A stretch of 64,000 bases of DNA, from assembly GCF_000026545.1 (NCBI RefSeq), contig NC_011601.1; one strand, written 5' to 3'. Under the pieces are notes generated by a model. That model saw only the letters and a list, made by a program, of their open reading frames with translations, searched no databases and was not told the origin of the DNA. Of the stretch, positions 5,449 through 11,778 are shown piece by piece; position 1 is the stretch's first letter; each line of letters opens with the position of its first letter. The position numbers and the translations under genes are program-made. The DNA is from Escherichia coli O127:H6 str. E2348/69 (GTDB lineage Bacteria > Pseudomonadota > Gammaproteobacteria > Enterobacterales > Enterobacteriaceae).

Positions 5449-5538
5449 TCATAGCCTTTCTCCTTGCCGGATGGCGGGTAAGAGGCTAAGATCTGAATTG
5501 CTAGGTTCATTCGTTGGCCTCGGTTTGTACTGTAGTGG

Positions 5539-5847
5539 TCAACAAAAACTGGCCACCGCTTTAGAGTTTTTCCAGTATCGGTTTTCCGATTCATTTGGTG
5601 GCAACCCACCGTTATATTCGTGCGGCCTGAGCGCGTTGTAATACCCAACGATATAGTCCGTTATTTCATGGGCAGCATCGCTGAAGTTCATGTAACCCGT
5701 CACCGGTATCCACTCGTTTTTCAGACTCCTGAAGAAGCGCTCCATCGGGCTGTTATCCCAGCAATTTCCTCGTTGACTCAGACTCTGTTTGATCTGGTAA
5801 CGCCACAGTAACTGCCGGAACTGCCTGCTTGTATAGTGGCTGCCCTG
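5539..5847 (-). pseudogene. IS911 OrfB 3' fragment (DDE transposase C-terminus)
   Basis: frame reads [24 protein letters not shown]...[12 protein letters not shown]...; resumes exactly after the IS110-family insert. Confidence 0.75.
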
Positions 5848-5863
5848 GACGCCCTTCTAAGAG

Positions 5864-6940
5864 TCAAGCCGTTATCGGGATGCTGTTGATCTGCCTGTTT
5901 TGATTACGCAGTAATGTATAAACTTCGCGTGAGATATAGCGCTTCAGGCAGCGTATTGCTTCCATTTTTGTATGCCCTTCCGCTACTCGTCTGGCGACAT
6001 ATTCCTTCGTTTTATCGTCAGTTCGCAAACGTCCGATGGCAATGATGTGAAGTGCACTATTTGCAGCACGATCTCCACCCCGGTTAAGTCGATAACGATT
6101 CGTTTTTCCTGAAGATACGGGAACAGGGCTGACACCACACAGTGCCGCAAAACCTGATTCTGATCTTAATCGTTGGGGATTGTCTCCTGCCGTGATCAGC
6201 AACTGCGAAGCGCTTTCGTATCCAATAGCATTACGTTTAATCAGTTCAGGCGCCAGCTCATCGACAATTGCCGCAATCATGACATCCAAATCAGCGATTT
6301 CGTCATGTAACTCGAGATAGCGTCGGGCAAGGGACTTTAATGAAATACGATAAACGTTGGTAACATTGCGGTATTCACTGGCATCAGGCCGCCAGGATCC
6401 CAGAGTCCTGATGAGCTGCATGCGCGTCATATTTCTGAGCTGTTCACGTAATTCATCCGGGGCAGAGATAATATTGGAATGGATAATCTGGAGAGCGACT
6501 CTGCGGGCTGATATTGCTGTTTTTCGGCAAGTTTTTAATACCCGCAGAGACTCAATCATGCCATTGCGCGTTTTGGGTGTGACGGTTCTTATTCCGGAGA
6601 ATGCGGCGTGAGCGGCACATTCAGCATCAATCGTGTCACTTTTACCCCGTTTGCGTCGCTCCATCCGATCTGGCGCAGTCACCTCAAGAACGTCTAACCC
6701 GGCATTCTGTAAATAGCGAAGCAGACCTGATCCATAGGTGCCTGTACACTCAACACCAATTCGCTTTAATGCCCCAAACGAAGTCATCCATGCCAGCATC
6801 TGCCGGTAACCTTGCCGTGTTGTGGAGAAAAACTGGGTCCCCAGAACTTTATTGTTCTGATCTACGACAGCGGCAACGTGCAGATCTTTATGTGTATCCA
6901 CGCCACCCACAACAGCGGTTTCCGTAACTTTACCTGCCAT
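5864..6940 (-). CDS. IS110-family DEDD transposase/recombinase
   Basis: 358-aa ORF with N-terminal RuvC-like GVDTHKD / ECTGTY motifs and C-terminal SGK...NRYRL...GG region typical of IS110 family. Confidence 0.9.
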   Translation of the reverse strand: MAGKVTETAVVGGVDTHKDLHVAAVVDQNNKVLGTQFFSTTRQGYRQMLAWMTSFGALKRIGVECTGTYGSGLLRYLQNAGLDVLEVTAPDRMERRKRGKSDTIDAECAAHAAFSGIRTVTPKTRNGMIESLRVLKTCRKTAISARRVALQIIHSNIISAPDELREQLRNMTRMQLIRTLGSWRPDASEYRNVTNVYRISLKSLARRYLELHDEIADLDVMIAAIVDELAPELIKRNAIGYESASQLLITAGDNPQRLRSESGFAALCGVSPVPVSSGKTNRYRLNRGGDRAANSALHIIAIGRLRTDDKTKEYVARRVAEGHTKMEAIRCLKRYISREVYTLLRNQNRQINSIPITA

Positions 6941-7220
6941 AACAGAGCTCCTGTGAGGAAACAGAGTTGAATCTCCAGACAGATAACCCGGACAGGACAG
7001 TAACGAGACAAACCGTCAGGCCCTTCTTGAGTCACGCGCATCGGTGAGGAGACGCCTCGCATGAAGGCGCTTCCGGCAACCGACAGGTCCAGGGCAGGAC
7101 AAAAGGGTCGATCGCTGTGTGAGTCAGGATGCGGGAAGGTCTTCACTGCATCAGTAATCACACCAGTCTGGTTAAACAGCAAACAGAGTGATGATAAAAA
7201 CTGATACCGGCATTATTACT
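6941..7220 (-). ncRNA. candidate bridge (guide) RNA in the 5' non-coding end of the IS110-family element
   Basis: non-coding 280 nt upstream of recombinase; 7111-7119 identical to left flank 7221-7229; 7087-7097 is reverse complement of right junction 5840-5850; segments near 7020-7027 and 7051-7058 match the element right end 5848-5858. Confidence 0.45.
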
Positions 7221-7751
7221 ATCGCTGTGGAACATTACCCCGGCTGGTTTACTGCGGATTTCCCAGGCCATTTTCAGCGCTTTGATGGTCAGTCTGCTGT
7301 CCGGAGAGAACGACATTGCCCAACCTACCGGTTTCCTTGCAAACAGGTCGAGAACAACGGCAAGGTATACCCAACGTTTCCCCGTCCAGATGTACGTCAC
7401 GTCGCCGCACCATACCTGATTTGGCTCTGTCACTGCGAACTGCCGCCCAAGGTGATTCGGGATAGTGACATGTTCACGACCACCTCGTTTATAACGGTGC
7501 GCAGGCTGCTGGCAACTGACCAGTCCCAGTTCTTTCATGAGCCTGCCGGCAAGCCAGCGCCCCATTCTGAAGCCTATCAGGGTTGTCATTGTGGCGATGC
7601 TTCTTGCCCCGGCAGAACCATGGCTGATGTTATGCAACTCAAGTACCTGACTGCGTAATACAGCCCGTCTGCCGTCTGGTTTTTCAGGACGGTTTTTCCA
7701 GTATCTGTAGCTGCTGCGATGAACCCCGAACACATGGCAGAGTGTGACCAC
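7221..7751 (-). pseudogene. IS911 OrfB 5' fragment
   Basis: ORF 7158..7751; native OrfB sequence ends at ...VMFHSD then reads into the IS110-family insert. Confidence 0.8.
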
Positions 7752-10272: not shown

Positions 10273-10282
10273 CCTCTGTAAG
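10273..10282. repeat. target-site duplication, right copy (CCTCTGTAAG)
   Basis: identical to 8713-8722. Confidence 0.8.
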
Positions 10283-10577
10283 AGCGGTATCGCTTGACCT
10301 TAATCGCTGCCTTCAGTGAGAGGATTCCCATCAGGCGCTGAACAGCTTTATGGTTAATCTGTTTCCCTTCTCGATGAAGAGACAGCGTTACCCTACGGTA
10401 TCCGTATCGGCCTCTATTCTCATGATAAATCTCACCAATACGCTTTTTAACGTCCGCATACTTGTCAGGCTTGCTGAGAGCCTTTAGATGGTAATAAAAC
10501 GTACTGCGCGGTATCTCCGCAGCCCTGAGAAGCTCATCAAGAGGATAAAACTGCCTTAGCTCGTTGAGTACTTTCAC
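10283..10577 (-). pseudogene. IS150 OrfB (InsK) 5' fragment
   Basis: GTG-initiated frame MKVLNELRQFYPLDELL...KRYRSYRG then reads into the IS50-like insert. Confidence 0.8.
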
Positions 10578-11095
10578 TTTTTCGTGGGATGAGCTAAGGC
10601 TTTCAGCTTTTTTAGATACACAAGCCGCGTTTCAAGAAATCGAACTTGCCTTTCAAGATCCTCAATGCGTCGGTCTTTTGACAGCTCCAATGCTGATGCC
10701 GCTTTTTCTGGATCAACTGATATTGCAATGTTTCTTTTGGTGCCAATCTTGAGCGCGCGTAAACCAGCTTCTCCGCGCTCTTCATAAACCTTCAGCCACC
10801 TGGCTACAGAACCACTACCAGCAAGCATAAAGTGAGCAGCAGCCTGATTAAGGGACATGTGCTGCTCGATCACAGCTTTCATGACCTTAATACGCAACTC
10901 AGGAGCAGCACTAACACCTTTAGGTTTGGGAATTAAACCTTTTTCTCCATGTTTTTCATAGAGGGCAACCCATGTCCTGACCTGGGTTCGGGGGACACCA
11001 AAACGTGCCGAGATGATCCTGTAACCATCATCAGTAGTGAAGTAGTGATTCACGACTTCAAGGCGCTTTTCAAAAGGGTATTTTGGCTTTGACAT
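10574..11095 (-). CDS. IS150 OrfA (InsJ)
   Basis: 173-aa ORF MSKPKYPFEKRLEVVNHY... Confidence 0.9.
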   Translation of the reverse strand: MSKPKYPFEKRLEVVNHYFTTDDGYRIISARFGVPRTQVRTWVALYEKHGEKGLIPKPKGVSAAPELRIKVMKAVIEQHMSLNQAAAHFMLAGSGSVARWLKVYEERGEAGLRALKIGTKRNIAISVDPEKAASALELSKDRRIEDLERQVRFLETRLVYLKKLKALAHPTKK

Positions 11096-11334
11096 ATCAG
11101 GGGCTATTCCATTTCATCGTCCAACAAAATGGGTGCAGTACAGTTGATAGAAATATCGGTCGGGGCCTTCGTCTTTCTGATTCCCGGTTAGCCTGAAAAC
11201 AGAAAGTCTCAGGCACCCGTGAGCATCCTATGTGGTTTCCTTAGGGTCGAAAATAATCACCTGACGAAATTGCGTGCTGTTTTCCAGAATTTTTCGTCAT
11301 TCGGTTTAGTCAGTTTAATCATTCGTTACTCTCG

Positions 11335-11778
11335 CAAGGCCGTGGATTTGCCGTTGTCGCCAGCGAAGTACGGACACTCGCAAGCCGCAGCGCCCAGACG
11401 GCGAAAGAGATTGAAGGCTTGATCAGTGAATCAGTCAGGTTAATTGACCTGGGATCGGATGAGGTGGCAACGGCAGGGAAAACCATGTGCACTATTGTTG
11501 ATGCCGTCGCGAGTGTCACACATATCATGCAGGAAATCGCCACCGCCTCGGATGAACAAAGTCGAGGCATAACGCAGGTTAGCCAGGCGATTTCTGAAAT
11601 GGATAAGGTGACGCAACAGAATGCTTCTCTGGTAGAAGAGGCCTCAACGGCAGCGGTGTCCCTTGAAGAACAGGCGGCACGATTAACTGAGGCGGTGGAC
11701 GTATTCCGTCTGAACAAACATTCTGTGTCGGCAGAACCTCGCGGAGCTTGTGAACCAGTTAGTTTTGCTACGGTGTGA
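11335..11778 (+). pseudogene. trg: methyl-accepting chemotaxis protein Trg, 3' fragment only
   Basis: frame encodes MCP signalling domain from [12 protein letters not shown]... to C-terminus; no 5' part of the gene, IS cluster lies upstream. Confidence 0.75.

Follow-up and report, generated by a model that had tools for sequence, protein, structure and literature searches.

We analyzed a stretch of 64,000 nucleotides (hereafter the window) of Escherichia coli O127:H6 str. E2348/69 (contig NC_011601.1), and here we focus on the interval between the toxin gene hokB and a truncated copy of the chemoreceptor gene trg. Four insertion sequences (IS), nested in one another, fill this interval from window position 5526 to 11142 (5617 bp), with hokB on one side and the trg remnant on the other: IS150 is interrupted near its tip by an IS911-like element and in its transposase gene by ISEc13 (IS4 family), and the IS911-like element is itself interrupted by ISEc21 (IS110 family). 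An initial annotation of this DNA, made from the letters alone, had recognized four IS elements between hokB and a trg remnant and had read the cluster as replacing the 5′ part of trg; the elements are indeed there, but the replacement is not what happened, since native DNA lies between the cluster and the trg break and IS150 is cleanly inserted in sokB. The same four elements are found in the RefSeq annotation of the Prokaryotic Genome Annotation Pipeline (PGAP), which lists the toxin Hok, part of an integrase core of the IS3 family, the ISEc21 (IS110-like) transposase, two partial IS3-family transposases, the transposase of ISEc13 (IS4-like), part of a helix-turn-helix protein (OrfA/B of IS150) and a partial methyl-accepting chemotaxis protein. 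Positions 4500–12800 of the window (8.3 kb) match three independent assemblies of this enteropathogenic E. coli (EPEC) strain (NZ_LT827011.1, NZ_LT903847.1 and NZ_CP059840.2) at 100%.

The locus was compared with alleles that carry fewer layers, namely those of 2022H047 (L002), sequence type 131 (ST131) strain Ecol_732 (L003) and K-12 MG1655, where the locus is intact (L004); for the locus labelled L001, the window coordinate equals L001 + 2999. Junctions were resolved by BLAST and by direct reading of the junction sequence, and the genome counts were obtained by searching 5426 complete E. coli genomes with queries that span the junctions. In the alignment to K-12, window 4500–5525 corresponds to L004 3115–4145, the match resumes to the right of the nest at L004 4143 (window 11143–11333 is L004 4143–4333), and window 11334–12800 corresponds to L004 5667–7133. 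On the K-12 side, sokB spans L004 4120–4176, mokB starts at 4130 and trg spans 4471–6111. The alignment is interrupted at two separate places: the nest in sokB, and a junction at 11333/11334 where 1333 bp (L004 4334–5666) are lost, comprising 137 bp upstream of trg and its codons 1–399. Alignment to related genomes, which the initial annotation had proposed for reconstructing the insertions and any deleted trg sequence, thus recovers the missing 1333 bp and sets their deletion apart from the insertions. Between the two places stand 191 bp of native DNA (11143–11333, plus strand), 94% identical to and colinear with K-12, which hold a GTT (11143–11145), the 31 nt at the 3′ end of sokB (11146–11176), the promoter and leader side of hokB and the distal sokB–trg intergenic DNA.

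The deletion junction, 191 bp from the end of IS150, is free of IS sequence and shows little microhomology, if any. It is found in 603 genomes, of which 526 have no IS in sokB and 76 have IS150 there; because it is common to the 526 IS-free genomes, the deletion came first and independently of the nest, as a plain 1333-bp loss in an ancestor common to ST131 and other B2 strains. The sokB::IS150 junction, in turn, is found in 632 genomes, and in most genomes with that insertion trg is intact beside it (e.g. B18271, L009). We read the locus as two unrelated histories lying side by side, the trg deletion and a nest built by successive insertions, and we put the probability of this reading at roughly 90%. 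The individual insertion steps, their nesting order and the independence of deletion and nest can be followed through the sequences of a series of alleles: deletion only (L011); deletion with IS150 (L003, which has hokB, an intact IS150 and the trg remnant); deletion with IS150 and an intact IS911-like element (L002, which has hokB, an intact element of the IS3 family, an intact IS150 and the trg remnant); all four elements (the window); and, apart from the deletion, IS150 in sokB next to an intact trg (L009, from B18271).

IS150 lies on the minus strand in three segments: its outermost 5 bp (TGTAC, 5526–5530), the 3′ part of orfB (8153–8722), and the rest of orfB with orfA (10574–11095) and the terminal repeat ...CAGTACA, which ends at 11142 (10273–11142). 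Comparison with L003 and L002 shows that the tip was parted from the body by the insertion of the IS911-like element. The initial annotation had placed IS150 at 8153–11143, which is essentially correct except that its first 5 bp lie at 5526–5530 and its end is at 11142. Once duplicated bases are set aside, IS150 proper consists of 5526–5530, 8156–8722 and 10283–11142, or 1432 bp when reconstructed (the canonical element has 1443 bp), with an 11-bp internal deletion at 8427/8428 and ~19 single-nucleotide polymorphisms (SNPs) in alignment to the canonical IS150 of K-12 and L003. Its terminal repeats (TGTACTG...CAGTACA) are identical at 23/40 positions and have the TG...CA ends of the IS3 family. 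The element is dead three times over, since its terminal repeat and its orfB are both split and 11 bp are deleted, and E2348/69 has no other copy of IS150 (the IS150 end has a single place in the genome). Both IS150 and the IS911-like element have the TG...CA repeats, 3–4 bp duplications, frameshifted orfA/orfB and DDE core of IS3-family members; the orfA/orfB arrangement was read from the intact copies in L002 and L003 (IS3-family and IS150 transposases with a programmed frameshift according to PGAP), since the window copies are disrupted, and the HSD|QGSH motif of the IS911-like orfB is visible in the window itself.

IS150 is flanked by a 3-bp duplication, GTT (5523–5525 and 11143–11145). 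The insertion lies within sokB and 15 bp upstream of the start codon of mokB, and sokB is cut after nt 26: its 5′ 26 nt, on the side of the hokB mRNA leader, remain at 5500–5525 (plus strand), and the match to the Rfam sok model (RF01794) falls into two halves, 5447–5555 and 11066–11218, that are 5.6 kb apart. Judged from these junctions, this is a simple insertion, and as the first step of the nest it placed IS150 in the sok stem-loop, cut sokB and parted mokB and hokB from their promoter and leader. The gene hokB (5308–5452 on the minus strand by alignment to K-12 hokB/mokB, with mokB overlapping to ~5510) is also broken, independently of the nest: behind codon 2, at ~5443/5444, a deletion of 5 bp (ATGAAGCACAACCCTCTG became ATGAAGCGCTCTG) shifts the frame. 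The same deletion is present in 2022H047 and absent from ST131 and K-12, and PGAP calls a shortened Hok of 44 aa at 5308–5442 with a non-ATG start. The locus thus has neither a contiguous leader and sok nor an intact hok frame, the two marks of a hok/sok locus, and hokB is predicted to be silent in E2348/69.

The IS911-like element (5531–8152, minus strand, exactly where it was first annotated) is in two parts, 5531–5847 and 7221–8152; the latter is its 5′ part, with orfA (~7778–8080), orfB as far as the DDE triad's second D and the other terminal repeat. Joined together they make 1249 bp that differ from the intact L002 copy by 2 SNPs. The ends are TGTAGTGG...CCACTACA, with repeats that match at 25/40 positions and TG...CA termini; both ends are intact and orfB is split, so the earlier description of both host elements as dead holds. 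The element is ~91% identical to elements that PGAP labels as IS911 family and 88.6% identical to ISEc52, and isoforms in ISfinder share ~95% or more DNA identity. By this measure it is an IS related to, and distinct from, IS911 (PGAP labels it only as 'IS3 family'). Many partial copies in other genomes break near position 916 of 1249 (matches cover 1–916 and 915/918–1249; query L002:3532–4780), which suggests that insertion or recombination recurs at a second point of this IS, apart from the ISEc21 site at 317/318.

The insertion site of this element is within IS150. The duplicated bases, TAC (5528–5530 and 8153–8155), are bases 3–5 of IS150 (TG-TAC-TGACCCC), so the element lies within the terminal repeat of IS150, at 5 bp from the tip, as judged against the uninterrupted IS150 of Ecol_732 and against 2022H047; the termini of the two elements do not abut without a spacer, as had been supposed. 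The junction occurs in five genomes (the three E2348/69 assemblies and 2022H047/048). As the second step of the nest, the IS911-like element entered the IS150 repeat, and 2022H047 has this insertion and the hokB 5-bp deletion in common with the window; ISEc21, ISEc13 and the 11-bp deletion of IS150 are specific to E2348/69. The terminal repeat of IS150 matches that of the IS911-like element at 15 of the first 26 positions (shuffled sequences: 6.6 ± 2.3), and because the IS150 repeat resembles the element's own ends, the insertion was probably directed by an inverted repeat (IR), i.e. 'targeted'. IS911 is the one IS for which a dual target specificity is documented, and this includes insertion at IR-like sequences (Loot et al. 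2002 and Rousseau et al. 2008, as cited in PMC9333248 and PMC7986276). As in the IS911 targeting outlined there, an IS911-type element here lies on a sequence that resembles its own repeat, with the end in nearly the same register; unlike it, the insertion is 5 bp inside the repeat, has an ordinary 3-bp duplication and uses the repeat of another IS.

ISEc21 (1373 bp; 5848–7220, minus strand) is the IS110-family element that the initial annotation had seen within the IS911-like element. It has an intact transposase gene (5864–6940, 358 aa), intact flanks and, upstream of the gene, 280 bp of non-coding DNA (6941–7220) with a guide of the seekRNA or bridge type. The protein scores 197.9 bits against NF033542 ('IS110 family RNA-guided transposase'; cut-off 140) and is of the DEDD type. 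ISEc21 is inserted exactly after a GAT codon of the IS911-like orfB (FHSD|QGSH), without terminal repeats or target duplication (junctions GGCTGCCCTG|GACGCC... and ...ATTACT|ATCGCTG), and removal of 5848–7220 restores the uninterrupted target of L002 exactly. In the non-coding guide, IS coordinates 102–111 (CACAGCGATC) equal the left half of the target on the top strand, and 124–131 (CTGCCCTG) are reverse-complementary to its right half, CAGGGCAG; the sequence of the circle junction would be ...GGGCGTC|AGTAATAAT.... In an Rfam scan, RydC and the split sok model were the only matches, and Rfam has no family for this guide RNA. The guide segments agree with the published seekRNA (PMC11187229), and experiments with another copy from E2348/69 have shown that ISEc21 is guided by its seekRNA to this conserved site of IS3-family elements (Siddiquee et al. 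Nat Commun 2024, PMC11187229). The window repeats what was described there: the same element, the codon for the second D of DDE, no duplication, and a guide that matches both halves of the target. Nothing material differs; the host is an IS911-like element here, and the ISfinder names given in that paper are ISCfr6, ISEc92 and ISEc93.

The IS911-like::ISEc21 junction is found in 465 of the 5426 genomes, at many loci. We considered ISEc21 as an unrecognized site-specific 'IS-in-IS' parasite, and we dropped the idea, as this behavior has already been published with experiments (PMC11187229). For example, the same IS911-like::ISEc21 composite is found in a lambdoid prophage of DCE7 (L005 4011–7776), with its host IS also split by IS30 and with ISEc13 ~1 kb away; this is another nested pile of the same elements at an unrelated locus. 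Could the IS911-like element have arrived at sokB with ISEc21 already aboard, the composite being mobilized in trans, and could 2022H047 have lost ISEc21 later by precise excision? The recurrence of the junction (the DCE7 prophage included) and the two intact terminal repeats of the IS911-like element are compatible with such a course, and IS110-type elements are known to excise as circles (PMC11187229), but seekRNA-guided site specificity accounts for a recurrent junction with no movement of a composite (PMC11187229). The 2022H047 copy of the IS911-like element is intact and differs by 2 SNPs only, and a gain of ISEc21 in situ is the simpler explanation. We consider arrival as a composite unlikely, and favor a gain in place, by which ISEc21 would have been guided by its seekRNA into the DDE codon after the IS911-like element had settled in IS150.

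ISEc13 (IS50/Tn5-like, 1550 bp; 8723–10272, minus strand) splits orfB of IS150, and the IS50-like element of the initial annotation is borne out by its ends and by its Tn5 homologue. Its 457-aa transposase gene (8734–10107) and its flanks are intact. The protein scores 514 bits against NF033590 (cut-off 160) and aligns over residues 6–453 with the Tn5 transposase structures 1MUH/4DM0 (E ~6e-84). The ends of the element are CTGTCTCTTGATCAGATCT and CTGTCTCTTATACACAAAT, both beginning CTGTCTCTT, and one 19-bp end is presumably identical to the inside end of IS50. Insertion duplicated CCTCTGTAAG in orfB, 9 bp with one additional ambiguous base (8713/8714–8722 on the left, 10273–10282 on the right). 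A Tn5-type DDE transposase, a 9-bp duplication and short repeats of IS50 type place ISEc13 in the IS50 group of the IS4 family; its transposase aligns with that of IS50/Tn5 end to end, but it is a distinct element, of 1550 bp with a 457-aa transposase, which PGAP names ISEc13. E2348/69 holds ~27 copies (27–30 places), and the IS150::ISEc13 junction is confined to the three E2348/69 assemblies. This insertion into orfB, perhaps later than that of ISEc21, would most simply be a neutral hit in IS150 DNA that was already dead. The earlier description of the cluster as serial insertions into an IS hot spot was right about the nesting; a better account of the nest is three separate events of sequence-directed targeting (IS150, the IS911-like element and ISEc21) and one insertion of a high-copy IS into dead DNA, with further decay by small deletions of 11 bp in IS150 and 5 bp in hokB.

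On the other side of the nest, the trg remnant is an open frame on the plus strand (11299–11778, 'TlsN*') with ATT at the start position, a short peptide and then Trg residues 400–546. The Trg part (11334/11335–11778) has 147 codons and a stop and is 98% identical in nucleotides to K-12, close to the ~148 codons from ~11335 that had been noted at first. The frame is open from 11257, with no ATG, GTG or TTG start before 11419 and no obvious ribosome-binding site; no sigma70-like promoter was seen in 11000–11500, and the promoter of trg is deleted. A Trg chemoreceptor has a ligand domain, two transmembrane helices, a HAMP domain and a complete signalling domain, and this set is broken by the deletion of codons 1–399; the sequence thus indicates, as was first annotated, that the canonical receptor is lost in E2348/69. 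That trg is truncated in B2 strains was known from earlier work (Lane 2006 and Borziak 2013, both cited in PMC12623472).

A complete trg elsewhere in the genome was named at the outset as a finding that would overturn the loss of the receptor. The genomes fall into four classes: 4501 have the 5′ part of trg, 603 have the junction of E2348/69 type, ~311 have a junction of UTI89 type (837 minus the 526 IS-free alleles whose two halves joined into one place) and 11 gave no match. These numbers add up to 5426 exactly, so in none of the genomes that have a truncated allele does the 5′ part of trg occur elsewhere. E2348/69 has a single place for the trg junction query, and a second trg copy in this strain is rejected.

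The truncated Trg of most B2 strains has been named Tls (Lee et al. EMBO J 2025, PMC12623472). Tls has the N-terminus MNVRIVLLS and sequesters FlhDC, so that flagellar genes are repressed, and the Trg fragment enhances its activity (PMC12623472). The E2348/69 variant, TlsN*, lacks an essential arginine, and its mCherry fusion neither localizes to the poles nor represses (PMC12623472). Translation of window 11299–11334 gives exactly the published TlsN* peptide; MNVRIVLLS with its R4 is absent from this frame, and the C-terminal Trg signalling fragment is present. The same TlsN*-type peptide is encoded in ST131 Ecol_732 (L003 5131–5610) and many other genomes. The two types share Trg residues 400–546 and an identical deletion junction, but functional Tls takes its N-terminus from the antisense strand of hokB by way of a second deletion of 296 bp (L004 4028–4323), whereas E2348/69 keeps hokB, mokB and the 191 bp of intergenic DNA, has no canonical start and has an inactive N-terminal peptide. 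In the UTI89-type allele (e.g. L008 2984–3454, FDAARGOS_1258), the identical trg junction is accompanied by 10 nt of the old intergenic DNA, GTTACTCTCG (the LLS codons), and the sequence then jumps to antisense hokB (GTG AAT GTC AGA ATC GTG) at L004 4027.

Because two independent deletions would not share a junction, functional Tls would derive from an allele of the E2348/69 and ST131 type. As a modest inference, this suggests that functional Tls arose in two steps: the 1333-bp deletion would have left a dead trg stump, and the 296-bp deletion, in UTI89-type lineages only, would have fused this stump to a GTG antisense in hokB, supplying a start codon and destroying hokB, mokB and sokB. We think it likely, although far from certain, that the E2348/69 and ST131-type allele is the surviving intermediate of this birth of Tls and that, in parallel, sok has served as a hot spot for IS150. 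No statement of a two-step origin was found in Lee 2025 (PMC12623472). Some B2 strains (536, ECOR64/65) retain a full-length trg (PMC12623472), which is a caveat to the two-step history, since recombination is possible. The inactive type is the commoner one among the complete genomes (603 versus ~311); the literature describes MNVRIVLLS as the majority B2 form (PMC12623472).

We also considered whether the remnant is alive, as a Tls-like cytoplasmic regulator that sequesters FlhDC and is perhaps driven by transcription out of IS150. Over the 147 residues of Trg it is nearly identical to functional Tls, whose activity the Trg fragment enhances (PMC12623472), and the frame extends back to 11257. 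But a canonical start, a ribosome-binding site and a sigma70-like promoter are all missing in the regions given above, the essential arginine is missing from its N-terminal peptide, and TlsN*, fused to mCherry, was neither localized at the poles nor able to repress (PMC12623472). An active regulator is quite improbable. The remnant is most probably silent or inactive, given that no canonical start precedes 11419, that no sigma70-like site is seen and that TlsN* is inactive.

A deletion of the 5′ part of trg by the elements themselves, either through serial insertions into trg or through an IS-mediated adjacent deletion, with the cluster taking the place of the lost DNA, was part of the initial annotation. 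The cluster and the truncated gene are indeed neighbors, IS3-family and IS50-type elements can cause adjacent deletions, and IS150 and the trg deletion occur together in 76 genomes. The idea is nevertheless rejected by the K-12 alignment, with its 191 bp of colinear native DNA between the end of IS150 and the trg junction, and by the 526 genomes that have the identical junction and no IS in sokB; in addition, the 3-bp duplication of IS150 is intact, and trg is undamaged in many genomes in which IS150 occupies this sokB site, which leaves this explanation hardly any room. An assembly artefact that collapsed or chimerized separate IS copies (repeats such as the ~27 ISEc13 copies are a classic source of misassembly), the other refutation named at the outset, can be dismissed, because three independent assemblies are 100% identical over 8.3 kb, every layer has a matching target duplication or an exact target site, and 2022H047/048 carries the preceding stage at the same nucleotide positions.

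Several points weigh against parts of the history in which deletion and nest are separate and the nest grew layer by layer. ISEc21 may have been lost from L002 by precise excision and not gained in E2348/69. The window IS150 is ~19 SNPs from the ST131 copy, so the two may go back to one inherited insertion or to two separate hits. The IR-directed mechanism for the IS911-like element is drawn from one event (its junction is common to five related genomes) and from sequence resemblance; as the sources citing it have it, the classic 'targeted' insertions of IS911 are next to an IR, and here the element is 5 bp inside one with a normal 3-bp duplication. There may also be read-through from IS promoters into hokB or the trg remnant.

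The insertion of IS150 in sokB has counterparts at other hok/sok loci. At a plasmid hok/sok locus (pOONT100_1, L007 2470–4030), the homologous nucleotide is occupied by IS150, oriented as in sokB and flanked by a TGG duplication. In another example, IS150 is at a comparable position of K-12 hokA/sokA (L006 2134–3576), in the opposite orientation; no target duplication is evident at K-12 hokA, for which reason that insertion may have been followed by rearrangement. The hokB site itself is occupied in both phylogroup-A-like and B2 backgrounds (e.g. L009 4101–5543, B18271). Together the hokB, hokA and plasmid hok/sok sites suggest that the sok stem-loop is a sequence- or structure-specific hot spot for IS150. 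The chromosomal hok loci of K-12 are described by Pedersen and Gerdes 1999 (cited in PMC7232551) as inactivated by IS150 or IS186 elements that lie near hok but outside it. Like these loci in that account, K-12 hokA/sokA among them, the window has IS150 in sok and the leader beside a recognizable hok; unlike them, the locus is hokB, which is free of IS in K-12, and its site is occupied in 632 genomes. The searchable literature yielded no paper on hokB together with IS150, and no description of such a preference.

Other features of the window lie outside this interval. The gapC gene (3098–4099, minus strand), a paralogue of type I glyceraldehyde-3-phosphate dehydrogenase, has an intact open reading frame of 333 aa and is a pseudogene in the annotation of K-12 MG1655. 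The small RNA RydC is complete at 4829–4892 (minus strand), directly downstream of cybB (Rfam RF00505, 90.5 bits). Between mnaT and pqqU (~34359–34582), PGAP has only a 168-bp fragment of the GntR family and a 69-bp fragment; K-12 presumably has curA and mcbR (yncB/yncC) there, and the biofilm regulator mcbR may be deleted in E2348/69. At ~41567–43507, a VgrG-like gene ('phage late control D') is truncated and joined to a frameshifted fragment of an Rhs core, with a toxin gene of the SymE family behind it, which looks like a decayed islet of Rhs/type VI secretion system effectors.

The nested cluster as such was already annotated in RefSeq, in a long-sequenced reference genome, and each of its components behaves as its family is known to; the biology is published or is ordinary IS behavior, and the leads are a two-step birth of Tls and a preference for sok on the part of IS150. 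The locus is a resolved natural example of layered IS targeting, in which an RNA-guided ISEc21 is found in the DDE codon of an IS3-family element and an IS911-type element in the repeat of another IS, and it is an example of IS150 repeatedly disabling hok/sok loci. It also provides a comparator allele for the recently described regulator Tls, which bears on flagellar control in ST131 and E2348/69 (TlsN*-type) versus extraintestinal pathogenic E. coli of the UTI89 type.

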